A stretch of 32,000 nucleotides of DNA from Delftia acidovorans NBRC 14950 (GCF_001598795.1 NZ_BCZP01000002.1:240001-272000), one strand, 5' to 3'. Counted from the stretch's first letter, positions 4,001 to 29,331 are shown. Notes: a model not told the origin generated them from the letters alone. A program made the numbers and translations.

Positions 4001-5776
4001 ATGAAGAACCATCCGTTCAAAGCCTCCACCCTGGCCCTTGCCATGAGCATGGCCCTGGCGTGGAGCGGCGCGGCCGGCGCCGACACCCTCAGGAAGCCCG
4101 CGCTGGACGCGCTGGCCCAGGCCCAGCCGGCACCCACCGACTTCGCCAGCTTCCTGAAGCAGGCCGCGGCCGCGCAGCCTGTCATCGCCCAGGCCGTGCA
4201 GCGACATGCGGCAGGCCAGGCGCTTGCGGGAGAGGACCTCGACCACATCGCCCGCCTGCTGGGCCTGTACACGCGGCTCACGCAGGAGCAGGCCGTGCTC
4301 GCCAGCATCGAGCGCATGGTCGCCCTGCCCACCGTGCGCGATGCCAAGGTGCCGCCCCATGAAAGCCCGGCCATCCTGGCTTTCGGCGAACTGGTGCAGC
4401 AGATGGCCAGGGACTTCGGCCTGCAGTACCGCAACGTGGACAACCGCATCTTCGAAGTCACCCTGCCTGCGAACGCCGCGAGTGCCTCGAACTCGGGCAC
4501 CGATGAATTCGGCATCCTCACCCATGCAGACGTCGTCCCCGTCGTCCCCGCCGAATGGGTGCTGGACGGCCAGGCCATCGACCCCTTCAAGGTCACGCGC
4601 GTGGGCGACAAGCTCTACGGGCGCGGCACCATCGACGACAAGGGCTCCATCGCCACCGTGCTGTTCGCCATGAAGGCCGTCAAGGACAGCGGCCTGCCCC
4701 TGTCGCGCGGCATTCGCCTCATGATCGAGACCACCGAGGAAACCGGCGGCGATGCCATGAAGTACTACCAGGGCAAGACCACGCTGCCCGCTTACAACAT
4801 CGTGCTGGACAGCAAGTACCCAGCCGTCGTCGCGGAAAAAGGCTCGGGCGCGCTCAAGGCCGTGTTTGACGACGTGAAGGCCGATCCCGCCCAGCCCGCC
4901 ATCACCGCCATGGCCGGCGCCGCATCGGCCAACGCCATTGCCCAGACCGCCACCGCCACCATAACGGCCGGCGACGAAGCCGCCATCGAAGCCATCGCCG
5001 CGCGCCTGCAGGCGGCCAAGGGTGACTTCACCACCAGCTATGCAGGGCAGGGCGGGCCGTTCACCATCGACATCCAGCGCAGCGGCACCGCAGCCACCGT
5101 CAAGGTCACGGGCACCTCGGCCCACGGCTCGCGCCCTGAGGAAGGCGTCAACCCCGTGCCGCGCCTGACGCTGTTCCTGCAGCAGGTGCTCATGCCCACC
5201 GATGGCGTGGCCCTGGTCCAGCCCAATGCCTACAGCAACGCCCTGCGCTACATCAACGGCGCCTTTGGCCTCGACTACTTCGGCAAGCAACTGGGCGTTG
5301 CCTATGCCGACGACTTCATGGGCCCGCTGACCCTGTCGCCCAACCTCATCAAGGCGGCAGACGGCAAGCTGGAAGTCACCACCAACGTGCGCATGCCGCG
5401 CGGCAAGACGCCCGAGCAACTGCGCACCGAAGTCGAGCAACGCATCACCCGCTGGAGCGCGGCCGCCAAGGTCCCCCTGACCCTGCAATACACCCAGGGC
5501 AACTGGATGGCGCGCGACCCCAAGGGCGCCTGGCTGTCCACCCTGCTCAACATCTTCGGCGACACCACGGGCCTGGACGCCAAGCCCGTGCCCACGGCCG
5601 GCAGCACCACGGCCAAGCTCATGCCCAACGCCATCAACTTCGGCCCCGCCATGCCCGGCAAGAAGTACACGGCGCACAACGCGCTCGAATACAAGGAGCT
5701 GCCCGACCTGCGCGCCGACATGCAGATGTTCACGGAAATGCTGGTGCGCATCGGGAATCTGAAGCAGATGCAGTGA
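4001..5776 (+). CDS. Secreted M20-family metallopeptidase (dipeptidase-like)
   Basis: N-terminal signal peptide MKNHPFKASTLALAMSMALAWSGAAGA. M20 motifs are present: THADVVPV, GRGTIDDKG, and metal-ligand-like EETGG. The high GC3 frame is consistent with the host. Confidence 0.85.
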   Translation: MKNHPFKASTLALAMSMALAWSGAAGADTLRKPALDALAQAQPAPTDFASFLKQAAAAQPVIAQAVQRHAAGQALAGEDLDHIARLLGLYTRLTQEQAVLASIERMVALPTVRDAKVPPHESPAILAFGELVQQMARDFGLQYRNVDNRIFEVTLPANAASASNSGTDEFGILTHADVVPVVPAEWVLDGQAIDPFKVTRVGDKLYGRGTIDDKGSIATVLFAMKAVKDSGLPLSRGIRLMIETTEETGGDAMKYYQGKTTLPAYNIVLDSKYPAVVAEKGSGALKAVFDDVKADPAQPAITAMAGAASANAIAQTATATITAGDEAAIEAIAARLQAAKGDFTTSYAGQGGPFTIDIQRSGTAATVKVTGTSAHGSRPEEGVNPVPRLTLFLQQVLMPTDGVALVQPNAYSNALRYINGAFGLDYFGKQLGVAYADDFMGPLTLSPNLIKAADGKLEVTTNVRMPRGKTPEQLRTEVEQRITRWSAAAKVPLTLQYTQGNWMARDPKGAWLSTLLNIFGDTTGLDAKPVPTAGSTTAKLMPNAINFGPAMPGKKYTAHNALEYKELPDLRADMQMFTEMLVRIGNLKQMQ

Positions 5777-5800
5777 CACTCTCCGGCTATTGAAATGCGA

Positions 5801-5831
5801 AAGCGCCTTGTGAAAGCAAGGCGCTTTTTTT
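5801..5831 (+). terminator. Rho-independent terminator downstream of the M20 peptidase
   Basis: Perfect 10-bp stem aagcgccttg / caaggcgctt with a 6-nt loop, running into a T7 tract, 25 nt after the stop codon. Confidence 0.75.
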
Positions 5832-5902
5832 CATCCACTTCCGCCCAGTCATTCGACACATGAAAGCCGACTGCCCTGGATGCGGCACAGGCCTGCCTGC
5901 AT

Positions 5903-6298
5903 TCAACCTTCCGGACCATGCTCCGCGTATTCCACAAAGGACGGTGCTTCATCAAACAGTTGCAAGAGCAGTTTCAGGTGCCGGGCGTAGAGGCTCTGTG
6001 GCCGGTTGAAGGCCTGGGCGGCCAGGGCGATGGCTGCGCGGGCGAGGTACCACTCGTTGTCGAATTCGCTGGCGTCCTCGAATACCTTGTGCCGAATTTG
6101 CCGGATGTGGTTCAGCGCCAGGTCTGCGGCCAGGTCCACCTCTACATCCGCGTCATGCCAGTCCATGTCGGCACAGCGTGTTTCGATCAGGGCAACCAGC
6201 CCCATCTCTGCGCGGGCAATGGACAGGGCGATCATTTGCTGCATGGTTGGCCAGGCAGCGGTGTCTACTAGGTGCGACTGCTTGGACGCGGCATCCAT
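5903..6298 (-). CDS. Hypothetical acidic helical protein (131 aa), no family recognised
   Basis: A strong SD (gggaggag) lies 8 nt upstream of the ATG at 6298. The ORF sits in a visibly lower-GC stretch and is divergent from the Arc-like gene. Confidence 0.55.
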   Translation of the reverse strand: MDAASKQSHLVDTAAWPTMQQMIALSIARAEMGLVALIETRCADMDWHDADVEVDLAADLALNHIRQIRHKVFEDASEFDNEWYLARAAIALAAQAFNRPQSLYARHLKLLLQLFDEAPSFVEYAEHGPEG

Positions 6299-6345
6299 GT
6301 CGGTAACTCCTCCCGATTCGGTATTGGTGCGTGGCGAGCCACTCT

Positions 6346-6388
6346 GAATCTATTAGATATTTTTGATTGTTTGATGTCAAATAGATTC
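6346..6388. promoter_or_regulatory. Inverted repeat gaatctatt / aatagattc in an AT-rich divergent intergenic region; candidate operator
   Basis: A 9-bp perfect inverted repeat (6346-6354 and 6380-6388). Two further direct gaatct copies lie at 6397 and 6415, between the divergent 131-aa gene and the Arc-like gene. Confidence 0.4.
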
Positions 6389-6425
6389 TTTGTCATGAAT
6401 CTTTCTGATGTCCAGAATCTGGCGG

Positions 6426-6788
6426 ATGACTGACAAGCAAGTGCCGTCCTACCCGTTGCGTATGCCTGTGGAGCTGCGTGAAAAGCTCACCCTCGTTGCC
6501 AAGAACAACAATCGCAGCGTGAACGCAGAAATCATTGCGAGGCTGGAGAGCAGCCTTGACGCAACCGGTGCCAAAGCAGACTTTGGACAGGATGTGGCCG
6601 TTCGGTCCGCGATGGCGGCGTCGCTTGCGGATGTGGCCGTTTTGACGCTGACCCAGGATGAGTCATGGAAAGAGGACGTCGCACGCAGGGTTGCTGAAAG
6701 CCTGCGTGCAATGCCATTGGTGTCTGCTGAGACGGCACCGGTGGATGCACAGCCGCCAAAGAATAGGCAGCGGCCAAGGAAGGCCTGA
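6426..6788 (+). CDS. Arc/MetJ-type ribbon-helix-helix DNA-binding protein with a C-terminal extension
   Basis: The N-terminus PSYPLRMPVELREKLTLVAKNNNRSVNAEIIARLESSL matches the Arc-domain pattern (beta strand, then ...RS.N.EI...L). The start could be ATG 6408 or 6426. Confidence 0.7.
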   Translation: MTDKQVPSYPLRMPVELREKLTLVAKNNNRSVNAEIIARLESSLDATGAKADFGQDVAVRSAMAASLADVAVLTLTQDESWKEDVARRVAESLRAMPLVSAETAPVDAQPPKNRQRPRKA

Positions 6789-6816
6789 GCAGCGGCCCTT
6801 CTTCAAAAACCCCGCC

Positions 6817-7575
6817 TCACTGCCTCCAGAAAAACACCCCCGCCATCACCAGCCCCGTCAGCACGATGCCTGCGCGCAGCCATTCGGGCGGGATGCGGCG
6901 CGCCAGGCGGGCGCCGCCGTAGCCGCCTGCGGTGGCGGCAATCATCATGACCAGGGCCTGCTCCCACTGCACGACGCCGCCGGCCGCATAGATGGCGACG
7001 GCAATGGCCGTGAGCAGGGCGGAGACCAGGTTCTTCATGCCGTTCATGGCGTGCAGCCTTGTCTGGCCCAGCAGGCCGAACAGGGCCAGCAGCAGGATGC
7101 CCAGGCCGCCGTTGAAGTAGCCGCCGTAGATGGCCACGGCCAGCATGCCGGCGCCGGCCTTCAGGGGCGATGCATGGGCGGCATGCTCGGCGCTGCCGCG
7201 TGATGCCATGCGCCTGAGCTGGGGCGCGAAGGCGAACATGGCGGTGGCGGCCAGCAGCAGCCAGGGGACGACCTTGCGGAACAGGTGGTCGGGCGTGACC
7301 AGCAGCAGGGCCGCGCCCAGAGAGCCGCCGATGAGTGACAGCACGATGACGCCGCGCATGCCCAGGCCGGGCGGCGGCTCCATGTCCTGGCGAAAGCCCC
7401 AGGCACCGGCCATGTAGCCGGGCAGCAGGGCGACGGTGCCAGTGGCGTTGGCGGCCACGGGCGGCACGCCGGTGAAGACCAGGGCGGGCAGGGTGAGGAA
7501 GCTGCCGCCTCCTGCAACGGCATTGAGCGCGCCGGCCACGAAGGCGGCGCTCATGAGCAGTGCGATGTCCCACAT
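6817..7575 (-). CDS. TauE/SafE family sulfite/anion exporter (DUF81 membrane protein)
   Basis: Polytopic membrane protein. The N-terminal FVAGALNAVAGGGSFLTLPALVF and the repeated internal half are typical of TauE/SafE. SD aggagga lies upstream of the ATG. Confidence 0.85.
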   Translation of the reverse strand: MWDIALLMSAAFVAGALNAVAGGGSFLTLPALVFTGVPPVAANATGTVALLPGYMAGAWGFRQDMEPPPGLGMRGVIVLSLIGGSLGAALLLVTPDHLFRKVVPWLLLAATAMFAFAPQLRRMASRGSAEHAAHASPLKAGAGMLAVAIYGGYFNGGLGILLLALFGLLGQTRLHAMNGMKNLVSALLTAIAVAIYAAGGVVQWEQALVMMIAATAGGYGGARLARRIPPEWLRAGIVLTGLVMAGVFFWRQ

Positions 7576-15421: not shown

Positions 15422-16138
15422 TCATTCCTCCGTGCCGGCGTTCCAGAAGGCCTGCAGCACGCCGGGCAGGGCCTCGATGGCGGCGATCACGCGGTCGAGC
15501 TCGTCGGAGTCCACCGAGGTGGCGTAGAGCATGGCCTCGATCTCCGTGTCCTGCGGGCCGAAGGCATGGGTTTCCAAGCCGCGCACGGGGTAGCTGGCGT
15601 TCTCCAGCAGCTCCAGCATCTGCTCGCGCACATCGCCCTGGGCGCCGCGGTGGCAGATGGCGTAGACGTAGTAGGTCGACTCCGTGGATTCGTCATCCAC
15701 CGGGCGGCGGTTGATGCGGTTGACCACGGGGCGCAGCAACGTATTGCTGGCCAGCACGAACAGCGTGGCCAGGCCCGCCTCGGCCACCAGGCTGGCGCCC
15801 GCGCAGGCGCCCACGGCGGCCGAGCCCCACAGCGTGGCCGCCGTGTTCAGCCCGGTGATGTTGGCCCCTTCCTTCATGATGGCGCCCGCGCCCAGGAAGC
15901 CCACGCCCGAGACCACGTAGGCCACCACGCGCGTGGCGCCCTCGGCCCCGCCCAGGCGCACGGCCAGGTCCACGAAGACGGCCGCGCCCACGGCGACCAG
16001 GGTGTTGGTGCGCAGCCCCGCCGTGCGCTGGCGCACCTGGCGCTCCAGGCCGATGAGGGCGCCGAACACGAAGGCCGTGGTCAGGCTGACGAAGGTGTCC
16101 AGCATGGCGCCGGGGTTGAGGTTCTGCAGGGCCTGCAT
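15422..16138 (-). CDS. mgtC: MgtC/SapB family membrane protein with an ACT-like C-terminal domain
   Basis: FGALIGLERQVRQRTAGLRTNTLVAVGAAVF is the MgtC family signature. The gene lies directly downstream of the P-type Mg ATPase. Confidence 0.85.
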   Translation of the reverse strand: MQALQNLNPGAMLDTFVSLTTAFVFGALIGLERQVRQRTAGLRTNTLVAVGAAVFVDLAVRLGGAEGATRVVAYVVSGVGFLGAGAIMKEGANITGLNTAATLWGSAAVGACAGASLVAEAGLATLFVLASNTLLRPVVNRINRRPVDDESTESTYYVYAICHRGAQGDVREQMLELLENASYPVRGLETHAFGPQDTEIEAMLYATSVDSDELDRVIAAIEALPGVLQAFWNAGTEE

Positions 16139-16201
16139 GGGGTTCCGGGCTTTCCTGGTGAATGGGTTGAAGGGGCGTTGAAAGAGGCGTTGAAGGGTGC
16201 G

Positions 16202-18961
16202 TCACTGCCAGCCGTAGCGGCGGATGTAGACGCGCTTGAGCAGCGTGGCCAGGCAAGCGTAGCCCAGCAATATGGCAATCATCCACGGGAAGTAGGCCGC
16301 CGGCAGCGCCTGCAGCTTGAAGTAGCCGGCCAGCGGCCCCATCGGCAGGAAGATGCCGGCCGCCATCACGGCCGCCGTGGCCAGCAGCAGCGGCCAGGAC
16401 GGGCGGCTTTGCAGGAAGGGGATCCTGGGCGTGCGGATCATGTGCACGATCAGCGTCTGCGTGAGCAGCCCGATGACGAACCAGCCCGACTGGAACAGCG
16501 TCTGCTGCTCGGGCGTGTTGGCGGCGAAGACGAACCACATCAGCGCGAAGGTCAGGATGTCGAACAGCGAGCTGATGGGCCCGAAGAACACCATGAAGCG
16601 GCCCAGGTCGGCCGGGTTCCAGCGCAGCGGCTGGCGCACCAGTTCGTCGTCCACGTTGTCGAAGGGGATGGCGATCTGCGAGAGGTCGTACAGCAGGTTC
16701 TGCACCAGCAGGTGCAGCGGCAGCATGGGCAGGAAGGGGATGAAGGCCGAGGCCACCATCACCGAGAACACGTTGCCGAAGTTGGAGCTGGCCGTCATGC
16801 GGATGTACTTCAGCATGTTGCTGAAGGTGCGCCGGCCCTCGATCACGCCCTGCTCCAGCACCATCAGGCTTTTTTCCAGCAGGATGATGTCGGCCGCTTC
16901 CTTGGCGATGTCCACGGCGCTGTCCACGCTGATGCCGATGTCGGCCGCGCGCAGGGCCGGTGCGTCGTTGATGCCGTCGCCCATGAAGCCGGTGATGTGG
17001 CCGTTGGCGCGCAGCGCATGCACGATGCGCTCCTTGTGCAGCGGCGTGAGCCGGGCGAACAGCTGGTGCCGTTCCACCGTCTGGCGCAGCATCTCGTCGT
17101 TCATGTGCTCGATCTGCGTGCCCAGGATGATGTGGTCTGCGGGCAGCCCTACATCGCGGCAGACCTTGGCGGCCACCAGTTCGTTGTCGCCGGTCAGCAG
17201 CTTGACGGCCACGCCGTGCGCGGCCAGGGCGGCCAGCGCCTCGGCCGTGGTTTCCTTCGGTGGGTCCAGGAAGGCGATGTAGCCGATCAGGGTCAGCTCC
17301 GACTCGTCGGCCACGCCGTAGTCGCTCTTGTGCGGCGGCACTTCCTTCATGGCCACGGCGACCACGCGCAGGCCCTCGCGGTTGAGCTCGCGCGTCACGC
17401 GGCGCACGCGGGCCAGTTGCTCCTCGTCCAGCGGGCGCGTGCCGTCGCCCTCGCGCAGCCGGGTGCACGCGCCCAGGATTTCCTCGACCGCGCCTTTGCA
17501 GATCAGCTCGTGGTGGTGGCCGCGCTCGGCCACCACCACGGACATGCGGCGGCGCTCGAAGTCGAAGGGGATCTCATCGACCTTGCGGTAGTCCTCGGCC
17601 AGGCGCATCTGGGTGTGCAGCTCCACATGCTCGAGCACGGCATGGTCGAGCAGGTTCTTCAGGCCGGTCTGGTAGTGGCTGTTGAGGTAGGCGAAGCGCA
17701 GCGTCTCGTCGCACGGCTGGCCGAAGGCGTCGGTGTGGCGCTCCAGCACGATGCGGTCCTGGGTCAGCGTGCCGGTCTTGTCGGTGCACAGCACGTCCAT
17801 GGCACCGAAGTTCTGGATGGCGTCCAGCCGCTTGACCACGACCTTGCGGCGCGACAGCACCACGGCGCCCTTGGCCAGGGTGGAGGTCACGATCATGGGC
17901 AGCATCTCGGGCGTCAGGCCCACGGCCACGGACAGCGCGAACAGGAAGGCCTCGGCCCAGTCGCCCTTGGTGTAGCCGTTGATGAACAGCACCACGGGCA
18001 CCATCACGGCCGCAAAGCGGATCAGCAGCCAGCTGACGCTGTTGACCCCGGTCTCGAAGGCCGTGGGCGCGCGGTCGTTGGAGGTCACCCGCGTGGCAAT
18101 GGTGCCGAAATAGCTGCGGTTGCCCGTGGCCAGCACCACGGCCAGCGCCGTGCCCGAGACCACGTTGGTGCCCATGAACAGCAGGTTGCTGGCGTCCAGC
18201 ACGCCGGTGCCATTCGATGCACTGGCGTCGGCGCGCTTTTCCACGGGCAGGGATTCGCCGGTCATGGCGGACTGGCTCACGAACAGGTCCTTGGCGCTGA
18301 GCACGCGGCAGTCGGCAGGAATCATGTCCCCGGCCGACAGCACCACGAAATCGCCGGGTACGACCTCGCGCAGCGGCACCTCGTAGCGGCGCGCCTGCTG
18401 GCCGAAGCCGCTGTGCGGGGCATCTGCGGAGTCGGCATCTGCAGGGGCCGGTGGGCCGCCATTGCGGCGCAGCACCGTGGCCGTGCTGCTGACCATGGCC
18501 TTGAGCCGCGCGGCGGCGCGGTTGGAGCGGCCTTCCTGCACAAAGCGCAGCAGCGTGGACAGCAGCACCATGGAGGCGATGACGACCGTGGCCTTCATGT
18601 CCTCCGTGGCGTAGGAGACCACGGCCAGCAGCGTCAGCAGCAGGTTGAAGGGATTGCGGTAGCAGTACCACAGGTGCAGCCAGCCGGGCAGCGGCTTTTC
18701 GTGCTCGACCTCGTTGGGGCCGAGACGTGCGAGCGCGGCGCGGGCCTGCTCGCGGGTCAGGCCGTCCTCGCTGGAGCCGGTGCGCGCCAGCACGGCGGCA
18801 ATGTCATCGCGCGAGGCGCGCAGCAGCTCGCGCGTGAGGGTCGGCGATACCGAGCACGAGTGGTGCACGGCCGTGCCCGAGGGCAGGGCATTGCGCCGGA
18901 ACAGCCCCAGGGCGTGGCGGCTGCGCAGAAATGCCTGGAACAGGTGCTTGAGGCTTTTCAT
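16202..18961 (-). CDS. mgtA: Magnesium-translocating P-type ATPase (MgtA/MgtB type)
   Basis: 919 aa with DKTGTLT, TGDN and GDGINDAPAL. The N-terminus LTREQARAALARLGPNEVEHEK and overall length are typical of P3B Mg2+ ATPases. SD gggagg lies 7 nt upstream. Confidence 0.95.
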   Translation of the reverse strand: MKSLKHLFQAFLRSRHALGLFRRNALPSGTAVHHSCSVSPTLTRELLRASRDDIAAVLARTGSSEDGLTREQARAALARLGPNEVEHEKPLPGWLHLWYCYRNPFNLLLTLLAVVSYATEDMKATVVIASMVLLSTLLRFVQEGRSNRAAARLKAMVSSTATVLRRNGGPPAPADADSADAPHSGFGQQARRYEVPLREVVPGDFVVLSAGDMIPADCRVLSAKDLFVSQSAMTGESLPVEKRADASASNGTGVLDASNLLFMGTNVVSGTALAVVLATGNRSYFGTIATRVTSNDRAPTAFETGVNSVSWLLIRFAAVMVPVVLFINGYTKGDWAEAFLFALSVAVGLTPEMLPMIVTSTLAKGAVVLSRRKVVVKRLDAIQNFGAMDVLCTDKTGTLTQDRIVLERHTDAFGQPCDETLRFAYLNSHYQTGLKNLLDHAVLEHVELHTQMRLAEDYRKVDEIPFDFERRRMSVVVAERGHHHELICKGAVEEILGACTRLREGDGTRPLDEEQLARVRRVTRELNREGLRVVAVAMKEVPPHKSDYGVADESELTLIGYIAFLDPPKETTAEALAALAAHGVAVKLLTGDNELVAAKVCRDVGLPADHIILGTQIEHMNDEMLRQTVERHQLFARLTPLHKERIVHALRANGHITGFMGDGINDAPALRAADIGISVDSAVDIAKEAADIILLEKSLMVLEQGVIEGRRTFSNMLKYIRMTASSNFGNVFSVMVASAFIPFLPMLPLHLLVQNLLYDLSQIAIPFDNVDDELVRQPLRWNPADLGRFMVFFGPISSLFDILTFALMWFVFAANTPEQQTLFQSGWFVIGLLTQTLIVHMIRTPRIPFLQSRPSWPLLLATAAVMAAGIFLPMGPLAGYFKLQALPAAYFPWMIAILLGYACLATLLKRVYIRRYGWQ

Positions 18962-18979
18962 GGTGACCTCCCTGGCGGC

Positions 18980-19390
18980 TCAGGCCTGGCTCGAACGAAG
19001 GGTGGCGCGCAGCCAGTGCCAGTTGCGCTGGCAGGCGCACAGCAGGCGGCGGCGCAGCGGCGGGCGGGTCACGGTGGCCGACTGCAGCCATTGGCGACGC
19101 GCATGGGCAGGCAGGTGGCGGTAGACCTCGGCGCGCTCCTGCGCCGCCAGCAGGGACAGAACGTCGGCCTGCTGGCGCTGCGTGAGCGCCACGAGGGCAG
19201 GGGCGAAGAGACCGGGGCCGTGTTGCTGCAGCAGGGCGTGCAGTTGTCCGGTATGGCGTGCCGCAATGGCGGCTTGCAGGGCCAGCTGCAGGGTGCTGGC
19301 GCGGGAGGTGTGGCTGGCGCGTGTGGAGACGGGTGCTGTGGCGGGCGTGGTTGCCGGCGTGGTGCGCAGCGCGGTGATGACGTGTTGCAT
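18980..19390 (-). CDS. Hypothetical 136-aa protein upstream of mgtA; possible MgtE N-terminal-domain-like helical protein
   Basis: High GC3 coding frame. The stop is 18 nt before the mgtA ATG. The segment LHALLQQHGPGLFAPALVALTQRQQADVLSLLAAQERAEVYRHLP loosely resembles the MgtE_N helical repeat, but this is my recollection of the pattern and not a search result. The start was taken at MQHVITAL (ATG 19390). Confidence 0.45.
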   Translation of the reverse strand: MQHVITALRTTPATTPATAPVSTRASHTSRASTLQLALQAAIAARHTGQLHALLQQHGPGLFAPALVALTQRQQADVLSLLAAQERAEVYRHLPAHARRQWLQSATVTRPPLRRRLLCACQRNWHWLRATLRSSQA

Positions 19391-19427
19391 GGCGGGCTTC
19401 TTTCGTTGCGGCCGAAAGAAGCCCGCC
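19391..19427 (-). promoter_or_regulatory. Very stable 15-bp stem-loop abutting the start codon of the 136-aa ORF (possible RBS-sequestering structure)
   Basis: ggcgggcttctttcg / cgaaagaagcccgcc form a perfect 15-bp stem with a 7-nt loop. On the mRNA strand the 3-prime arm ends at the nucleotide before the ATG, and no U-tract follows. Confidence 0.5.
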
Positions 19428-19436
19428 ATCTGTCCA

Positions 19437-19556
19437 TCAATGGACGTGCGCGGGTCTCCCGGCCGGGGCCTTGGGATGAGGCGGAAGGGCCGCAGGCATG
19501 TGCGGCCGGACCGTATCGGAGGGGTCAGGGCAAGATCGACTCGGATCGGGGTCCAT
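19437..19556 (-). CDS. Candidate proline-rich leader peptide ORF (39 aa: MDPDPSRSCPDPSDTVRPHMPAALPPHPKAPAGRPAHVH)
   Basis: The canonical SD aaaggag sits 7 nt upstream of the ATG at 19556. 11 of 39 codons are Pro. The stop lies 9 nt upstream of the 15-bp hairpin. This ORF is too short for the supplied track and I translated it by hand. CCN-rich frames are common by chance in high-GC DNA, so confidence is modest. Confidence 0.35.
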   Translation of the reverse strand: MDPDPSRSCPDPSDTVRPHMPAALPPHPKAPAGRPAHVH

Positions 19557-19604
19557 GGGGGAACTCCTTTCTGACGATGGGGCGGACAAGGCTGCGGCGC
19601 GCGT

Positions 19605-19841
19605 TCAGCGCGGCTGCAGGCTCAGAAAGCTGCGGATGCGGTGCGTGGGCCAGTGGGTCTGCAGGTCCAGGTGCATGGCGTGCTCCATGGCCGAAGGGGC
19701 CTGGGCTTGCATCTGTGCCTGTGCCTTGGCCTGCATTGCTGCCTGGGAGGCAGCCACGCGCGTACCGGTGGCGCCGGGGCAGGGCGCGGCAGTGGCAGGC
19801 TGCAGGCGTTGCATTGCGGGGCGGACGAACGGTGTGGACAT
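19605..19841 (-). CDS. Small hypothetical protein (78 aa), Ala/Gln-rich centre and His-rich C-terminal part
   Basis: Strong SD aaggaga 5 nt upstream of the ATG at 19841. Third-position G+C is high and similar to neighbouring genes. It has the same orientation as the mgtA operon. No family recognised. Confidence 0.5.
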   Translation of the reverse strand: MSTPFVRPAMQRLQPATAAPCPGATGTRVAASQAAMQAKAQAQMQAQAPSAMEHAMHLDLQTHWPTHRIRSFLSLQPR

Positions 19842-20092
19842 GGCTTTCTCCTTGGCGAACCAGGAAGACCGCCGTAGGCAGGGCCGTCAAGCAGCGTGGG
19901 CCGGGTGCTGCTCGATGGCAGCCACACGGGCACGCGGTCAGTGATCAACAGCCATTGGAATCTTCGGTGCAGGAGCGGCGTGCCTGATGCAGGCCAAGCG
20001 CCACTGCAGCGCCGGGCGGCGCGAAGATCCAAGGGGAAACGCAGCAATGGATGGAAGCCGACCGACATGGCCGCTCCCATCACAGGAGTCGG

Positions 20093-23208: not shown

Positions 23209-23218
23209 GCCGCGCTGG

Positions 23219-23242
23219 CGGTCAGCGGGTGACCGTTTTTTT
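23219..23242 (+). terminator. Probable rho-independent terminator after the Bug gene
   Basis: cggtca / tgaccg form a 6-bp stem with a 5-nt loop, followed by T7, about 10 nt after the stop. Confidence 0.55.
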
Positions 23243-23383
23243 CCATTGAATGAAGACTGGACCGGCGAAATCGGCGGCATTGTCTGCAGTCGCCTTTGTG
23301 AGCCGAGTGCCACGTATTGGTGTGTGAAATCTGTTACCCTCCGCTTACATTTTTAAGGGGGCGGTGTGGGGGTGGAGAAAATC

Positions 23384-24550
23384 ATGCGCCGGGCCATGGC
23401 ATGGCTCTGGCTTTTTGCGCTTGCAGCGTCGGGCGCTGCAATGGCCGAGGACCGGCCCAATGTCACTTTTGCGGGAGTCGCCTATTCGGGCGACGCCAGT
23501 TCGCAGCAGCAGCGATTCCCTTATTCAAAGCAGTATGAGAGCCGCCTGAAGGCCGCCGGGCACAGTGCCTATGCGCGGGCACTGGCATTCGTGCAGCAGG
23601 CGCCTGCACAGCATCTGCAGATATCCACCAATCCCATCGATGAGCTCAAGGGGCGCGACCAGGCCCTGGTGGTTTCTCTGGTGCTCAATTCCGAGACGGT
23701 CTCCGTGGAAAGCTTTGGCGGCGTGCGCAAGCTGTTCATCCTGATTCGTGGACAGGCCCTGTTTTTCGACTTCAAGTCCATGACGGCGGTGCGTTCGTAT
23801 CCGCTCAGCTTTGCCTTCATCGACAACCTGCGCCACGAGCCGTCGCAAGAGGAAATCATGGAGCGCGTGACCAAGGTATACGAAGGCGCGGGAGGCAAGC
23901 CCGGCATCTTCGGCCGTTTTGCCCAGGTGCTGGCCACGGCCACCGTGCCCTCGCAGACGCCGCGTTTCCTGCAGGTCACCGATATCCAGATTCCCGCCGC
24001 CATGGCCGAGATGCTGCCCGGCTATCTGCAGGACCCGCAGGTGCACAAGACCTGGGCTGCCGATATCGTGGGCGAGGCCATTTCCAGCCGCATTGGTGTG
24101 CCCATCATTCCTTTTGCCATGGGCTATGCCGTGGGCAATGTGATGCGCATGCAGGTGCTTGACGGAGAGGTCTACACGCTGCAGCTGCCCAGTGCCGACT
24201 ACGCCATCAGCGTCGATTTCAAGGGATTCAAGAAGCTCAAGTTCAAGGAATCCAGCGCCGGCACCAGCTATGTCTACGGCACCTTTGCCGATATGCGCAT
24301 CCAGGAACCCAATGGGCCGGTGTTTCTCGGCGCCTCGCTGAAGAACGCGGAAGTGAAGGTGGTGCCTTCCACGCAAACCCATGTCGATGACTTTCCGGCG
24401 TTCTATGACTCGCTCAACGGCCTTTTCGTGAAGCTGGCCGAGACGGTGGCGGCTGGAAAGGGCAATGACTGGCTCAAGTCGGCTGCTGCCGAGAGCGACA
24501 TCGAAGCGCAAATTGTCAAAACAAAAGACCTGATGAATCTATGCAAGTAA
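23384..24550 (+). CDS. Exported protein of unknown function (388 aa), first gene of the four-gene envelope cluster
   Basis: SD ggtggaga lies 5 nt upstream of the ATG at 23384. Cleavable signal peptide MRRAMAWLWLFALAASGAAMA. No family recognised. G+C is somewhat lower than in neighbouring genes. Confidence 0.75.
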   Translation: MRRAMAWLWLFALAASGAAMAEDRPNVTFAGVAYSGDASSQQQRFPYSKQYESRLKAAGHSAYARALAFVQQAPAQHLQISTNPIDELKGRDQALVVSLVLNSETVSVESFGGVRKLFILIRGQALFFDFKSMTAVRSYPLSFAFIDNLRHEPSQEEIMERVTKVYEGAGGKPGIFGRFAQVLATATVPSQTPRFLQVTDIQIPAAMAEMLPGYLQDPQVHKTWAADIVGEAISSRIGVPIIPFAMGYAVGNVMRMQVLDGEVYTLQLPSADYAISVDFKGFKKLKFKESSAGTSYVYGTFADMRIQEPNGPVFLGASLKNAEVKVVPSTQTHVDDFPAFYDSLNGLFVKLAETVAAGKGNDWLKSAAAESDIEAQIVKTKDLMNLCK

Positions 24551-25680
24551 TCCAGAAAATCCTCCTGTGCCTTTCCATGGCGCTGTTCGCGGCCGGTGCG
24601 GGCGCGCAGGTGCAGCAGGCACGCGGCAAGGCCTCGGTCAGCTATCAGGATTCAAAGGTCAGCCCGCAGGACAAGGAGCGTGCACTGATGGCGGCCCAGC
24701 TCAAGGCCGTGGAGTTCTACTACGCCGAAGCGGGCCAGTCGGAGGCCGAGAATTTCGACGCCGTGCGCGACAAGATCCTGGCCAACCCCGATCGCTACAT
24801 CCTTGAGCACACCGTGCTCAGCGAAGAGGACAACGCCGACAGAAAGCAGTACACGGTCTCCGTGCGCGTGGCGCTGAACGTGGCCAATCTGCGCAATGCC
24901 GTCAAGGCCAACTCTGCCGTGGCCAGGGGCGGGCCTGCAGGCCGGTCGCCGCTGGCCTTCATGTTCGTCTCGCGCCAGGTGGCCACGACCAAGTCCTTCG
25001 ATGACCGCGTCTACAAGCGCGTGGACGAGACCGAGGACGTCAAGGCCCAGGTCAGCGCTTCCGAAAAGGGCAGCGAGGGTGAATCCATCCGTGGCGGACG
25101 CATCAGCACGAATGCCTCCACGGCGACCTCGGGCACTGCCTCGGTCAAGAGTAGCCGCACTTCCGAGACCGGCGGCAGCACAACGCGACGCTCGGCCGAG
25201 TCCACCTGGCGCGTGATCCCCAGCGCCAACCTGTCCCAGGTCTTTTCCTCCAACTTCGCCAAGGCCGGCTTCAAGGTGTCAGAGGCTGCCATGGTGGAGC
25301 CCTACACGGGCGGCCACTTCAAGGTCGCGGCCGTGGAGAACGACTACAAGAGCGGCATGGACCTGCAGCCCTCGACGCTGGCGGCCATGGTGGCCGGCAT
25401 GCGCACGGCGCAGATTCCCTACATCGCCCTGGGCACGCTGGATGTGGGCATGGGCGAGCCCGATCCCCAGACCGGCCTGATGCGCGTGAGCGTGACGGTC
25501 AACGCCAAGATCCTGGACATCGCCCAGACCATTCCCGACACGATTGCCGCCGTCGGCCCCGTGCTGTACGCGGGCACCGGCCCGTCCGAGGATGAGGCGC
25601 GCAACAACGCGCTGAAGCTGGCCGCCAACAACGCGGCCCGCGATCTCACCAGCCAGGTCACCAATCTGGGCCTGCGTTGA
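24541..25680 (+). CDS. Exported protein (379 aa) with an LPP20/FlgT-N-like N-terminal region, a Ser/Thr-rich insert and a CsgG/FlgO/LpoB-superfamily-like C-terminal region
   Basis: Signal peptide MQVIQKILLCLSMALFAAGAGA. Its ATG lies inside the last 10 nt of the upstream gene. The pattern KASVSY..DKERALMAAQLKAVEFY resembles LPP20-like lipoprotein domains. YIALGTLDVG and the terminal EDEARNNALKLAANNAARDL resemble the same fold class. These domain calls are pattern recollection only. Confidence 0.7.
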   Translation: MQVIQKILLCLSMALFAAGAGAQVQQARGKASVSYQDSKVSPQDKERALMAAQLKAVEFYYAEAGQSEAENFDAVRDKILANPDRYILEHTVLSEEDNADRKQYTVSVRVALNVANLRNAVKANSAVARGGPAGRSPLAFMFVSRQVATTKSFDDRVYKRVDETEDVKAQVSASEKGSEGESIRGGRISTNASTATSGTASVKSSRTSETGGSTTRRSAESTWRVIPSANLSQVFSSNFAKAGFKVSEAAMVEPYTGGHFKVAAVENDYKSGMDLQPSTLAAMVAGMRTAQIPYIALGTLDVGMGEPDPQTGLMRVSVTVNAKILDIAQTIPDTIAAVGPVLYAGTGPSEDEARNNALKLAANNAARDLTSQVTNLGLR

Positions 25681-25696
25681 GCGCTGCGGCTTCCAA

Positions 25697-25727
25697 GGTC
25701 CGGCTGCCATGCAGCCGGACCTTTTTT
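25697..25727 (+). terminator. Rho-independent terminator between genes 2 and 3 of the cluster
   Basis: ggtccggctg / cagccggacc form a perfect 10-bp stem with loop catg, followed by T6, 17 nt after the stop. Confidence 0.8.
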
Positions 25728-25800
25728 CCGTTCTTTCGCTTTCCTCGTTTTTATCTTCGCCGTCCGCGTTCACGGACTGCTGCAACCCGAGTCCATCTCC

Positions 25801-26463
25801 ATGAAAAAGCTCTTCACCACCGTCGCCGTTGCCGCCGCCATGGCCAGCCCCGCCCTGACACAGGCCCAGTTCTCCATGCCCTCCATCCCGGGTGTCGGCA
25901 AGCTCATGGGCGGCAGCGGCTCTGCCGACGTGGCCGGCCAGGGCGACGCCCTGGTGCGCAGCTATGTGGGCGCCAGCAAGGAGGTGCTCAGCGCCAATGC
26001 CAAGATGGCCACGGCCCTGGGCCTGAAGGAGCAGGCCGCCAGCGCCGCCAGCACGGCGGACAGCCTGGGTGATGGCGCCACCCTCGGCGCGCTGGGCGAT
26101 GGCAACAAGGTGGTCTCGGACACCAGCGGCGCGATTGCCGAGTCCATGGCGAAGAAGCCCGTGCTCGATGCCGCCTCCAAGGCCACCTTCGCCGAGGGGC
26201 TGGTGCACCTGGTCAACGGCAGCGTGAAGTACGCCGGCATGGGCAAGGATGTATCGGTCATGGGCAAGAGCCTGCAAAGCGCCAACCCCATGCAACTGAC
26301 CAAGCTCACCTCCGCGGCCTGGGTGGTGTCCAAGTTCCCCGGCTCGGCCTCCGACCTGTTCAGCACTGTGCAGACGGCCATTGCATTCGCGCGGGCCAAC
26401 GACATCGAGGTGCCGGCCAATGCGGCTGACGCCACGGCCGCGCTGGGCACGCTCAAGCTGTGA
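25801..26463 (+). CDS. Exported Ala/Gly/Ser-rich, probably helical protein (220 aa), unknown function
   Basis: Signal peptide MKKLFTTVAVAAAMASPALTQA. Host-like codon bias. No recognisable family. No obvious SD. Confidence 0.65.
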   Translation: MKKLFTTVAVAAAMASPALTQAQFSMPSIPGVGKLMGGSGSADVAGQGDALVRSYVGASKEVLSANAKMATALGLKEQAASAASTADSLGDGATLGALGDGNKVVSDTSGAIAESMAKKPVLDAASKATFAEGLVHLVNGSVKYAGMGKDVSVMGKSLQSANPMQLTKLTSAAWVVSKFPGSASDLFSTVQTAIAFARANDIEVPANAADATAALGTLKL

Positions 26464-26489
26464 TCCGGTACAGGCAAGGAGCACTTTCT

Positions 26490-27944
26490 ATGCGTATCCG
26501 CATCATTGCGGCCGTCGTGGCTGCCTGCGCCGCCATGTCCGGCTGTGGCGACAAGCCGTCCGAGCAGCCCAGGACCGACGCGCCTGAACAACCCCAAAGC
26601 GTCGCCCCGCCCGTGCCCGACGTGGGCAGGCTGGAGACCGTCGAGGTCCAGGTCACCGGCCTGGGCCAGTCCCCTGGCGAAGCCATGGCGCAGGCGCTGC
26701 AGATGGCGCTGCTGCAGGTCAATGGCGCGGTGATCCAGTCCGCCTCGGTCACGGCCAAGTACGGCCTCGACGTGGCGCTGGGGCAGGACGCCGCCTCGCT
26801 GCGCGCCAGCGCCTTCGCCGAGGTGGTCAAGCAAAAGTCCGGTGGCGTCATCCAGTCGGTCCAGGTGGTGGATCTGGAAGAGCCCAAGCCTTGGGCCAAG
26901 CGCTACAAGTACACCATCAAGGCCAGCATCTCCAAGTTCAAGCCTTCGGCCGAGATGCAGAAGATCAAGGTCGTGGTCGGGCCGATGCGCTTCGAGCAGG
27001 CCTCGTTGCCCATGGGCGACCGCAGCGTTTCCGCCGCCGAGGTGGGTGCAACGCTGAGGCAACGCATCAGCGACGCCCTGGTGCAGACAGGCCGCTTTGC
27101 CGTGCTGGACCGCGAATTCAGCCCCGAGATCGAGCAGGAACTGGCCATCATCGCCACGGGCCAGGCGCCCAGTGCCGAGCTGGCCAAGCTGTCCCAGGCT
27201 GCCAGCGCCGATCTGGTGTGGAGCGCCCGCGTCAGCAGCTTTGCCTACAACCGCCATGCCCGCCAGCTCAAGACCAGTGACCGCCAATTGGTGAGCTACT
27301 CGGGCGGCTGGGCCCTGTCGCAGAAGCTGGTGAATGTGGCCACGCGCCAGGTCACGGCCTCGGATTCGCTGCGCGGCTCCGTCCCTTCCACGGCACCGAC
27401 CACGCTGGGCGCGGGCGTGGATGGCAACAAGGTCATGACCGACATGAGCGATGCGCTGGTCGCCGGCGTGGTCAGCTCCATCCTGCAGCGCACCTTTCCG
27501 CTGACCGTGGTCGCCCGCGATGGCGAAAGCGTGGTGCTGAGCCAGGGCGGCCAGGCCGTGAAGGAGGGCGCGCGCTACCAGGTGGTGGCCATGGGCAAGG
27601 AGATGAAGGACCCGCAGACCGGGCAAAGCCTGGGGCGCCTGGAGTCACCGTGCTGCGAACTGGTGGTCGATCGCGTGACTCCAAACCTCTCCTACGGCCA
27701 CCTGGAGAACATGCGCGGCGGCATGGAAGACCTGCCACCGGGCGGGCTGCAGGTGCGTGAGGTGCTGAAGGCATCCGCCGCGCCGGTGCTGGCCGCACAG
27801 GCTGCATCAGGCGATACGGCCGCGGCCGCTGAGCCCCAGGCCGCACCGGCCCGTGCTGCACAACCGCCCGCAGCACGCCGCGCGGCCTCGCCCGCCAAGG
27901 AGGCCGATGCCCCGGTCGGCAAGAAGGACGACGACAACTGGTAA
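26490..27944 (+). CDS. Multidomain outer-membrane lipoprotein with a central CsgG/HfaB-family-like domain
   Basis: SD aaggag lies 8 nt upstream of the ATG at 26490. Lipobox AAMSGC. The centre KIKVVVGPMRF...LRQRISDALVQTGRFAVLDREFSPEIEQELAIIATGQ...ASADLVWSARVSSF matches the CsgG-family core pattern. The N-terminal TGLGQSPGEAMAQALQMALLQVNGAVIQS looks LPP20-like. A C-terminal beta-rich segment (VVLSQGGQAVKEGARYQVVAMGKEMKDPQTGQSLGRLE) is followed by an Ala/Pro-rich tail. Confidence 0.8.
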   Translation: MRIRIIAAVVAACAAMSGCGDKPSEQPRTDAPEQPQSVAPPVPDVGRLETVEVQVTGLGQSPGEAMAQALQMALLQVNGAVIQSASVTAKYGLDVALGQDAASLRASAFAEVVKQKSGGVIQSVQVVDLEEPKPWAKRYKYTIKASISKFKPSAEMQKIKVVVGPMRFEQASLPMGDRSVSAAEVGATLRQRISDALVQTGRFAVLDREFSPEIEQELAIIATGQAPSAELAKLSQAASADLVWSARVSSFAYNRHARQLKTSDRQLVSYSGGWALSQKLVNVATRQVTASDSLRGSVPSTAPTTLGAGVDGNKVMTDMSDALVAGVVSSILQRTFPLTVVARDGESVVLSQGGQAVKEGARYQVVAMGKEMKDPQTGQSLGRLESPCCELVVDRVTPNLSYGHLENMRGGMEDLPPGGLQVREVLKASAAPVLAAQAASGDTAAAAEPQAAPARAAQPPAARRAASPAKEADAPVGKKDDDNW

Positions 27945-28839: not shown

Positions 28840-29331
28840 TCAGATCAGCGATTTTGCGTTGTCCAGCACGAAGTCGCAGGCCTTCTCCTTGAGGTCGCCC
28901 TTGAGCTTGTCGATGCTGAAGCTCTTGCCGTTGGAGCCGGTGACCAGGCCGCCCAGGCCGTTCTGGAATCCCGTGTCCTTGGGCTCTTCCTGCTTTTGCA
29001 TGCCCAGCTTGCCCAGCAACTGGTCCTTGACCTGGGCAGCCTTGTCGGCATTGAGGTAGTTGTTCTTCATGCAGTAGGAGATGACGCCTGCCGCATTGCC
29101 GGCCGTGGCCGAGGGGCTCAGGCCCAGGGCGGACAGCGCACCCGCACCGCCTGCCCCCGCACCCAGCATGCCGCCGAGGCCGGAGCCGGCGCCTTCGCTG
29201 CTGGCGGCGGCCTTGTCACCGCCAAGCCCGGAGGCCTGGCGCAGCGAGTCGCCCAGGCCCGACGCCTGGGCAGGCAGGGCGCCCAGGCCCAGCATGGCGC
29301 ATAGCAGTGCGCTGGCAATGGATGTCTTCAT
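28840..29331 (-). CDS. Secreted Gly/Ala-rich protein with a conserved two-Cys C-terminal domain (DUF2501-like as I recall the family)
   Basis: Signal peptide MKTSIASALLCAMLGLGALPAQA and a Gly-rich region with three SGLG repeats. The C-terminal AGNAAGVISYCMKNNYL...KEKACDFVLDNAKSLI resembles DUF2501 proteins. This is from memory and was not searched. Confidence 0.7.
   Translation of the reverse strand: MKTSIASALLCAMLGLGALPAQASGLGDSLRQASGLGGDKAAASSEGAGSGLGGMLGAGAGGAGALSALGLSPSATAGNAAGVISYCMKNNYLNADKAAQVKDQLLGKLGMQKQEEPKDTGFQNGLGGLVTGSNGKSFSIDKLKGDLKEKACDFVLDNAKSLI

Follow-up and report, generated by a model that had tools for sequence, protein, structure and literature searches.

A conserved four-gene cassette of exported proteins in Delftia acidovorans, possibly a periplasmic scaffold and probably not a CsgG-type pore

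Here, we describe a cluster of four genes, termed G1 to G4, in a stretch of 32,000 nucleotides from Delftia acidovorans NBRC 14950 (GCF_001598795.1, NZ_BCZP01000002.1:240001-272000), referred to below as the window, in which every gene of the cluster encodes an exported protein and the last encodes a lipoprotein related to CsgG, the curli secretion channel. A reading made earlier from the sequence alone had seen in this cluster a candidate module for envelope assembly or secretion, arranged round a CsgG/HfaB-like lipoprotein. Using gene order across genomes and metagenomes, profile searches and structure models, we find that the four genes are inherited as one unit and that G4 is probably not a pore of the CsgG type, and we tentatively propose that the cassette builds a ring or disc scaffold in the periplasm, tethered to the outer membrane.

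The four genes and their export signals

Open reading frames (ORFs) bear out the four consecutive, same-strand genes of 388, 379, 220 and 484 amino acids that had been proposed for this locus. All four lie on the plus strand, and all positions are coordinates of the whole window:

23384-24550 (+): G1, ORF of 388 amino acids, with a GGAG ribosome-binding site 6 nt before its ATG
24541-25680 (+): G2, ORF of 379 amino acids
25801-26463 (+): G3, ORF of 220 amino acids, Ala-rich, exported
26490-27944 (+): G4, ORF of a 484-amino-acid lipoprotein, publicly labelled 'CsgG/HfaB family protein'
26544-26546 (+): codon of the lipobox Cys19 of G4 (M-S-G-C), read from the sequence, the Cys being invariant in 110 homologues

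G1 has an alternative GTG start at 23366, which would lengthen the protein to 394 amino acids, and its ORF shares 10 nt with that of G2, an overlap that recurs in other loci, where the remaining intergenic gaps are short. G4 is preceded by AAGGAG, 8 nt upstream of its ATG. Signal peptides were judged by inspection, from a basic n-region, a hydrophobic core and an AxA-type cleavage site, and on this basis the Sec signal peptides claimed earlier for all four proteins stand, as does the lipobox of G4. The ORF sequences of G1, G2 and G3 contain no lipobox, and their cleavage is predicted between AMA and ED, AGA and QV, and TQA and QF, respectively.

Inheritance of the cassette as a unit

One genome per species was scanned with an alignment of G4, which gave 80 loci from about 80 species, and the cassette genes were located in these loci by tblastn with the four window proteins. 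All 74 loci with enough upstream sequence contain G1-G2-G3-G4, always in that order and on one strand, the remaining 6 of the 80 being contigs cut just upstream of G4 or G3. The hosts are mostly Burkholderiales, namely Comamonadaceae, Pandoraea, Cupriavidus, Caballeronia, Oxalobacteraceae and the Roseateles/Piscinibacter/Rhizobacter group, and they further include Gallionella, Uliginosibacterium and the gammaproteobacterium Solimonas. Public homologues of G4, G2 and G1 with 99-100% identity are from Delftia acidovorans or unnamed, and the D. tsuruhatensis locus (L001) stands at 98%. The genes that flank the cassette in the window recur only in the three closest loci when the 80 are searched by tblastn, and clustering of the flanking ORFs gave no family present in more than 11 genome loci, the largest being the abundant TctC family.

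For a metagenome scan, some of the very distant G2 relatives, with 25-45% identity, served as the query, after which hidden Markov models (HMMs) of the four proteins were applied to the loci obtained. Among the 50 metagenome loci that extend far enough on both sides, the order is G1-G2-G3-G4 in 27 and the same with G3 duplicated in tandem in 5; G4 stands upstream of G1 in 3, and 1 is irregular; the other 14, which all belong to one lineage, lack G4 and keep G1, a shortened G2 and G3. Most of the G4-less loci carry a small charged protein instead, and several also a small DUF3192 lipoprotein. The only recurrent additions in the metagenome set are uncharacterised genes adjoining the cassette.

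The four genes are thus inherited as a unit across the Burkholderiales and beyond, and the conserved order, with flanks conserved only among the closest relatives, sustains the view of a self-contained and uncharacterised envelope module. Co-occurrence across relatives had been put forward as a check on whether the adjacency was due to chance, and the constancy of the order shows that it was not. Two features of the Delftia locus could have been taken to mean that four unrelated exported proteins simply lie side by side there, since a strong terminator-like hairpin parts G1 and G2 from G3 and G4 and the G+C content differs between the two halves. The hairpin spacer is specific to a few genomes, however, and the synteny analysis, with the same order in every informative genome locus and in most distant metagenome loci amid unrelated flanks, refutes such fortuitous adjacency, to which we assign practically no chance. 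One part of the earlier framing has to be reversed: the cluster had been described as built round a CsgG/HfaB-like lipoprotein, but as G4 is missing in one lineage that keeps G1 to G3, it is G1-G2-G3 that forms the constant core and the CsgG-like G4 that is replaceable.

The G4-less lineage (L125-L151, for example L125:8241-12041) has a G1 without its terminal Cys, a G2 of about 244-272 amino acids and a G3, followed downstream by a 102-amino-acid charged protein and, in several loci, by a DUF3192 lipoprotein and a 132-amino-acid exported protein; two of its loci, L141 and L142, still hold G4. Cassettes from Pandoraea, a genus of the Burkholderiaceae (L023-L036, L056), are as close to that of Delftia as are those from Comamonas (G2 identity about 71-73%), and those from Cupriavidus and Caballeronia are much further away (47-60%). 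Variovorax possesses two divergent cassette types, with G4 identities of about 65-70% and about 52%, and the cassette of Variovorax sp. WS11 (L017) is on a 1.1-Mb plasmid. Together, the closeness of Pandoraea, the plasmid copy and the two Variovorax types suggest horizontal transfer, and an accessory function fits the varied genomic places, the plasmid copy and the signs of transfer better than a housekeeping one.

Domain architecture and family relationships of G4

The AlphaFold2 model of G4 has a mean predicted local distance difference test score (pLDDT) of 73, with confident domains at residues 46-152, 159-335 and 339-425, and the protein is divided here into N-, M- and C-domains followed by a tail:

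26619-26948 (+): G4 N-domain (residues 44-153), with a beta-alpha start, the motif G-x-G-x-x-x-x-E-A...Q-V-N-G and weak FlgO/LPP20 matches in some relatives
26727-26840 (+): segment of the G4 N-domain (residues 80-117), highly conserved yet with pLDDT below 50
26949-27500 (+): G4 M-domain (residues 154-337), alpha/beta, of the CsgG/LpoB/FlgT-M/TolB-N class
27501-27773 (+): G4 C-domain (residues 338-428), beta-rich, of the FlgT-C / TsaP CI-CII type, with the motif K-D-P-Q-T-G-Q-S-L-G-R
27774-27941 (+): G4 tail (residues 429-484), Ala/Pro-rich, pLDDT below 50 (predicted disordered), ending DDNW

The segment at residues 80-117 differs in length between lineages and alternates hydrophobic with polar residues; it may fold only in an oligomer, possibly as a barrel. 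Two variants of about 770-780 amino acids, P0051 (L081:10001-12346) and P0115 (L082:10000-12309), have the arrangement N-M-C-M-C, with the M-C pair duplicated, and are still found within a G1-G2-G3-G4 cassette and still end in DDW.

G4 is the only one of the four proteins with a Pfam family. It matches CsgG (PF03783) at residues 154-256 with an E value of 3.6e-9 and 36.7 bits, against a gathering score of 20.8, and the match spans positions 5-106 of the 210 in the profile, that is, the N-terminal half only. LpoB (PF13036) falls below its threshold (E 0.087; 13.2 bits against 22.3), as does the NCBIfam model of that family, TIGR02722 (14.3 bits against a cut-off of 110.55), and NCBIfam gave no above-threshold match for G4. 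When 36 diverse G4 relatives were compared with Pfam, the matches were spread over LpoB (30 members, best E 1.7e-7), CsgG (24), DUF3280 (12), FlgT_M (7, best E 1.1e-5), TolB_N (7), FlgO (3), LPP20 (2) and FlgT_C (1), so that 'CsgG' is only one among several family labels for the middle domain, all of them equally weak. Pfam detected no LysM, OmpA_C or SPOR domain in G1 to G4, and no LysM in the 36 members of the G4 family.

The frequency of LpoB among these matches raises the possibility of a role in the cell wall, in which G4 would act like LpoB and reach a peptidoglycan synthase, or the complex would serve as a spacer between outer membrane and peptidoglycan. The LpoB C-domain is also among the structural matches of G4 described below, and all the components are periplasmic. 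The window G4, however, matches LpoB only below threshold, and it has three domains and a short N-terminal linker, in contrast to the single globular domain and long disordered linker of LpoB; the cassette lacks the LysM, OmpA_C and SPOR domains, and its varied genomic places, the plasmid copy and the signs of transfer between families also count against this role, which we regard as very unlikely.

G4 compared with CsgG

Foldseek searches of the PDB with the G4 model rank FlgT first (3w1e, E 7.9e-17 over 418 columns; 8z5n_0, the FlgT chain in the cryo-EM structure of the Vibrio LPHT ring, 9.9e-17). CsgG comes next at 4e-6 over about 200 columns, and is followed by further proteins of that alpha/beta class, namely CT253, HpaA, TolB, GNA1162, LpoB and PelC, the last of which is a dodecamer. 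Against PDB sequences, a diverse G4 profile has its best match in TsaP (6ve2_O, E 3.2e-7), both C-terminal repeats of which (CI and CII) align to the G4 C-domain, with the TsaP of 3jc8 at 5e-3 and CsgG (4UV2) at 3e-3; these matches come from the diverse profile only, a PDB search with the close G4 alignment having given nothing significant.

G4 resembles CsgG (PF03783; 4UV2/4UV3) and HfaB in being a lipoprotein, and the first half of its M-domain is recognisably homologous to CsgG, but the likeness does not extend to the transmembrane hairpins TM1 and TM2, the two amphipathic beta-hairpins by which each CsgG subunit contributes to a 36-stranded barrel and which we take to be residues 134-154 and 184-204 there. 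The HMM of the G4 family aligns to residues 44-117 only of E. coli CsgG, and the diverse profile, which reaches residue 185, ends before TM2, as does the Pfam CsgG match; a forced global alignment puts a loop of about 13 residues at the TM2 position. The hairpin of G4 equivalent to TM1, residues 251-272 (FAYNRHARQLKTSDRQLVSYSG), is nearly invariant and has mean hydropathies of -1.06 and -0.98, so that both alternating phases are polar, as compared with +0.82 (TM1) and +0.97 (TM2) for the hydrophobic phases of E. coli CsgG. On these alignments and the monomer model, G4 is probably not a CsgG-type pore. Public homologues of G4 go under the names 'CsgG/HfaB family protein' or 'curli ... secretion channel CsgG', and as the pore-forming hairpins are absent these automatic labels are probably misleading. 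The picture of a CsgG-like pore at the centre of the module is therefore not supported, given that FlgT is the better match, that TM2 is absent and the TM1 hairpin polar, and that the C-domain is TsaP-like.

It might still be argued that G4 is a true channel of the CsgG/HfaB type, whose substrate for secretion across the outer membrane would be either G3 or some protein or polymer with genes at another locus, and that G1 and G2 would be periplasmic adaptors like CsgE and CsgF. In favour of this are the above-threshold Pfam score, the CsgG matches in 24 of 36 family members, the lipid anchor shared with CsgG and the presence of a hairpin at the TM1 position; moreover, the tandem G3 duplicates of some cassettes recall major and minor subunits, and the conserved, low-confidence amphipathic segment of the N-domain might form a barrel only in the oligomer. 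An unrelated Acinetobacter cluster of three genes that includes a CsgG homologue, for which there is no known substrate, affects the surface polysaccharide poly-N-acetylglucosamine (PNAG) and pili (10.1101/2021.05.19.444899). Set against these points, the CsgG match is of half length, TM2 is without counterpart, the nearly invariant TM1 hairpin is polar on both faces, and the FlgT match is far better and extends over the whole length; G4 also adds N- and C-domains that CsgG and HfaB do not have. The usual partners had been reported missing from the window, and csg, hfa and flagellar genes, DUF799 and DUF4810 are indeed not among the neighbours of the cluster there; more broadly, no csgA/B/E/F- or hfaA/D-like gene was found in about 160 loci (80 genome and 80 metagenome), and G3 has no amyloid-like repeats. 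Finally, the lineage that retains G1 to G3 does so without G4. Taken together, we judge a secretion channel of this kind to be quite improbable.

The Acinetobacter locus belongs with the CsgG/DUF4810/DUF799 clusters of Acinetobacter, Neisseria and Vibrio, which resemble the present cassette as small, widespread clusters of exported proteins round a CsgG-family lipoprotein, and GNA1162 (4HRV) is among the Foldseek matches of both G1 and G4. The likeness goes no further, in that G1 to G3 are neither DUF799 (GNA1162-like) nor DUF4810 by Pfam, are not lipoproteins and have about 220-390 amino acids.

G4 compared with FlgT and TsaP

The two remaining relatives are both components of rings or belts. 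FlgT, from the polar flagellar motor of Vibrio, consists of N, M and C domains and forms a periplasmic H ring of 26 subunits beneath the outer membrane, round the LP ring of the flagellum, with the C-terminal tail of FlgP (Q133-F143) sitting in a groove of the FlgT ring (10.64898/2025.12.04.692373). TsaP, the secretin-associated protein of type IVa pili, has in CI and CII two beta-rolls like FlgT-C, and its 'fingers' join the subunits into a heptameric belt round the PilQ secretin (10.1101/2020.05.29.123786). G4 has the N-M-C order of FlgT (3W1E; 8Z5N chain 0), with two alpha/beta domains and then a beta-rich C domain, and differs from it in having a lipobox, where FlgT is no lipoprotein, and in its long disordered tail, which ends in DDxW; the gene for FlgT is grouped with flgO/flgP and further flagellar genes, while G4 has no flagellar neighbours (flgO/flgP, motX/motY). 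With TsaP (6VE2 chain O; 3JC8) it shares the FlgT-C-like domains, and the variants with a duplicated M-C pair recall the tandem C domains of TsaP. TsaP, however, possesses an N-terminal LysM and no lipid anchor, as against the N and M alpha/beta domains of G4 and its lack of LysM, and no pil genes are linked to the cassette.

This repertoire, which is that of FlgT, TsaP, FlgO and LPP20, leads to a special case of the scaffold that we propose below, namely that the cassette provides an accessory belt, TsaP-like or FlgT/FlgO/FlgP-like, for the secretin of a type IV pilus or type II secretion system, or for a flagellar LP ring, encoded elsewhere. The FlgT and TsaP belts both encircle machines that span the outer membrane, and many host genera of the cassette are flagellated and piliated. 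But none of the loci examined shows flagellar, pilus or secretin genes linked to the cassette, which also has no LysM such as TsaP has and is without MotX/MotY partners; an accessory belt of this kind is, in our estimation, as doubtful as the channel.

G1, G2 and G3

The three proteins of the constant core belong to no described family. No match was found for G1, G2 or G3 in sequence and profile searches of Pfam, NCBIfam and the PDB, and Pfam gave none in 35 diverse members of the G1 family or 29 of the G3 family; the HMM searches that had been suggested as a check on novelty therefore leave G4, with its half-length CsgG match, as the only member of the cassette in a Pfam family. All 321 homologues of G1 are named 'hypothetical', as are those of G2, and G3 goes under that name in public sources too. 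An all-against-all comparison of nine domain alignments with hhalign gave no internal homology, the best pair being the C-terminus of G2 and the start of the G4 N-domain at 12% probability.

Structure modelling places G1 less in isolation. Its AlphaFold2 model is of high confidence (pLDDT 87.3, predicted template modelling score 0.84), with a strand/helix pattern that occurs twice, and Foldseek matches it to CsgG (4uv2, 3e-5), the LptE homologue Cj1090c (5e-5), LptE, and FlgT in the H ring (8z5n_0, 3e-4 over 295 columns). G1 is thus predicted to consist of two tandem alpha/beta domains of the LptE/CsgG/FlgT class, and by these matches it would belong to the same fold class as G4. The earlier statement that G1 and G3 match nothing accordingly holds for both by sequence and fails for G1 at the level of its model. 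Outer-membrane lipoproteins like PqiC, LptE, PelC and CsgG have a common alpha/beta core, and several, among them CsgG and PelC, form rings beneath the outer membrane, the PqiC-like PA3214 being an octamer (PMC13631591). The core fold of the LptE/PqiC/PelC/LpoB class is the one common to G1 and the G4 M-domain, but members of that class have a single domain and work with LptD, PqiB or PelB as partners, whereas the cassette encodes multi-domain proteins and has no transporter encoded nearby.

The G1 protein ends in a conserved Cys-Lys/Arg, C387 (24542-24544) being its second-to-last residue, and the G4 C-domain contains a pair of adjacent conserved cysteines, C388-C389 (27651-27656). A disulfide between G1 and G4 was considered and rejected, since the G1 Cys occurs without the G4 pair in 23 loci and the pair without the G1 Cys in 5; with no covariation, such a bond is unlikely.

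G2 is the most conserved of the four proteins, and its family, when clustered at 50% identity, comprises 545 clusters, of which 395 have E <= 1e-10. Its N-terminal domain is joined by a Ser/Thr-rich linker, in which EGE and E-x-GG motifs are invariant, to a C-terminal domain that is weakly LptE-like. Membership of the CsgG/LpoB/FlgO/LPP20 fold class had been claimed for both G2 and G4, and is upheld for G4 by its Pfam CsgG match; for G2 it depends on sub-threshold LptE and FlgT_N matches. G3 would be mainly helical, to judge from its composition; its signal peptide is followed by a Gly-rich linker, and the motif I-P-V-P-x-D-A is conserved close to its C-terminus.

An acidic-aromatic tail

The C-terminus of G4 is a conserved feature in its own right. 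In the Burkholderiales set, 73 of 77 G4 proteins end in W, nearly always after D or E, with DDKW as the commonest ending (47), and an acidic-aromatic end is present in 38 of the 41 distinct distant G4 sequences. Acidic-aromatic ends are also commoner among genes that adjoin the cassette on the same strand (20/138 against 15/337 with crude ORF calls, p = 3e-4). The acidic-aromatic tail may be a docking peptide, an idea modelled on the way in which the FlgP tail sits in the FlgT ring.

In many distant cassettes, a fifth exported gene of 420-490 amino acids follows directly after G4, and its product has a D-x-F end after a low-complexity stretch. Examples of such extra genes are L085:14119-15543, L112:9494-10753 and L100:1892-2572, and they are sometimes found between an upstream G4 and G1. 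One of these D-x-F proteins matches DUF6844 just above the Pfam cut-off; the one paper found to mention that family lists the Francisella protein FTL_0572 as a member.

A possible scaffold beneath the outer membrane

The reading that we put forward, tentatively and as somewhat short of probable, is that the cassette is a self-contained module for a ring or disc scaffold in the periplasm, tethered to the inner face of the outer membrane, and not for a CsgG-type pore. G4 would be lipid-anchored in the outer membrane and would, like FlgT and TsaP, form oligomers by way of its N/M and C domains, with G1 and G2 of the constant core forming the body and adding further layers and G3 acting as a small adaptor or cap. 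The DDxW end of the flexible Ala/Pro tail of G4 would act as a plug and fit into a groove on an adjacent subunit or on a partner, and the extra exported D-x-F proteins of distant cassettes would be recruited by the same kind of docking. In Delftia, the strong hairpin between G2 and G3 may cause the last two genes to be expressed less than the first two. Such a scaffold could serve the outer membrane itself or a machine encoded elsewhere.

Several results weigh against this proposal. Ring formation is inferred from the relatives FlgT and TsaP only, and the fold class holds true channels (CsgG) and proteins that do not form rings (LptE, LpoB) as well. The template modelling scores between G4 and FlgT are low, at 0.24-0.32, with root-mean-square deviations of 17-23 A, so that the likeness is one of domains in shared order and not of rigid superposition; nor did Pfam FlgT_N, FlgT_M or FlgT_C match the window G4 at E <= 1. 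The G4 segment at residues 80-117 is modelled with low confidence in spite of its conservation, and the matches of G2 to Pfam are all sub-threshold, involving LptE in 6 of 79 members (best 5.9e-4) and FlgT_N in 3 of 18. A FlgT-like G4 cannot be the essential core, being absent from the lineage that accounts for 14 of the 50 metagenome loci, and about 160 loci gave no linkage of the cassette with genes for flagella, pili or secretins.

A bolder form of the scaffold proposal, which we think unlikely, is that of a widespread and unseen organelle-like structure, a multi-layer ring or disc under the outer membrane that is independent of flagella and pili, consists of a FlgT-like lipoprotein and the three families without a Pfam, NCBIfam or PDB sequence match, and recruits its components by a shared C-terminal D-x-W/D-x-F 'address tag' on a flexible tail. 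In its boldest form, the hairpin of the G4 N-domain would make a new oligomeric barrel, and so a secretion route unlike CsgG in detail.

The literature search found no paper that deals with the cassette, or with G4 homologues from Delftia, Variovorax, Comamonas or Pandoraea. Neither the four-gene unit nor its tail motif, nor three of the four protein families, is described in Pfam, NCBIfam, the PDB or the literature that could be searched. It is not categorically new, as its parts come from known domain classes. FlgT and TsaP are examples of how periplasmic belts round machines that span the outer membrane are made from a small set of domains, and the cassette uses these domains as a stand-alone system that is strictly co-inherited and is spread in the Burkholderiales, including the opportunistic pathogens Delftia and Pandoraea, and in many uncultured aquatic bacteria. 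If the scaffold is real, it would represent either an envelope structure not seen before or a so far overlooked accessory of pili, secretins or flagella in the beta-proteobacteria, and would also suggest that a simple signal at the C-terminus serves for docking.

Expression signals and neighbouring genes

Two further features lie in the non-coding parts of the cluster:

23209-23383 (+): intergenic leader before G1, with the terminator-like hairpin of the upstream TctC gene at 23217-23237 and the GGAG ribosome-binding site at 23374-23377
25695-25733 (+): hairpin and U-run in the G2-G3 spacer, the hairpin (25695-25723) having a 13-bp stem with 9 G-C pairs and a 3-nt loop

No sigma-70-like promoter was found before G1, Rfam gave no match in its upstream region, and no upstream k-mers or motifs common to several genera were found there. 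A motif TCTG(G/T)TAA(C/T)CTCCG at 23330-23350, about 35-55 nt before the G1 start, is present only in Delftia and its two nearest relatives (L002, L003), and could be an operator or promoter element.

The G2-G3 spacer of 120 nt has a folding energy of -44.8 kcal/mol (z = -5.0) and occurs with its hairpin in Delftia and a few genomes only, the gap being about 0-60 nt in most other genomes. This hairpin may be an internal attenuator that sets the ratio of G1/G2 to G3/G4. The terminators that had been assigned to the cluster are borne out in part, in that one hairpin follows the upstream gene and the other is internal to the cluster, but the terminator scan found none after G4. Similarly, the lower G+C content reported for the cluster is confined to G1 and the 5' half of G2 (0.60-0.62, compared with 0.67-0.70) and does not extend to the rest.

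The neighbours of the cassette are unrelated to it; they encode a fusion of fatty-acid hydroxylase (FA_hydroxylase) and YhhN, a TctC-type binding protein, a histidine phosphatase, a DUF2501 protein and a family-5 solute-binding protein (SBP_bac_5). The DUF2501 protein, which is small, exported and Gly/Ala-rich, lies just downstream of the cassette on the opposite strand (28840-29331, minus strand) and is kept beside it only in the nearest relatives (L001, L003), so that it is probably not part of the module. Elsewhere in the window, an ORF at 15566-19987 (+) of 1473 amino acids is without a Pfam match and shares its position with long ORFs on the opposite strand (for example 16202-18961, 919 amino acids); it may be a spurious ORF of high G+C content or an unannotated large protein. 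The lowest G+C content of the window, 0.586-0.603 as against about 0.70, is at 5501-7000, a region unrelated to the cassette that may be foreign or intergenic.

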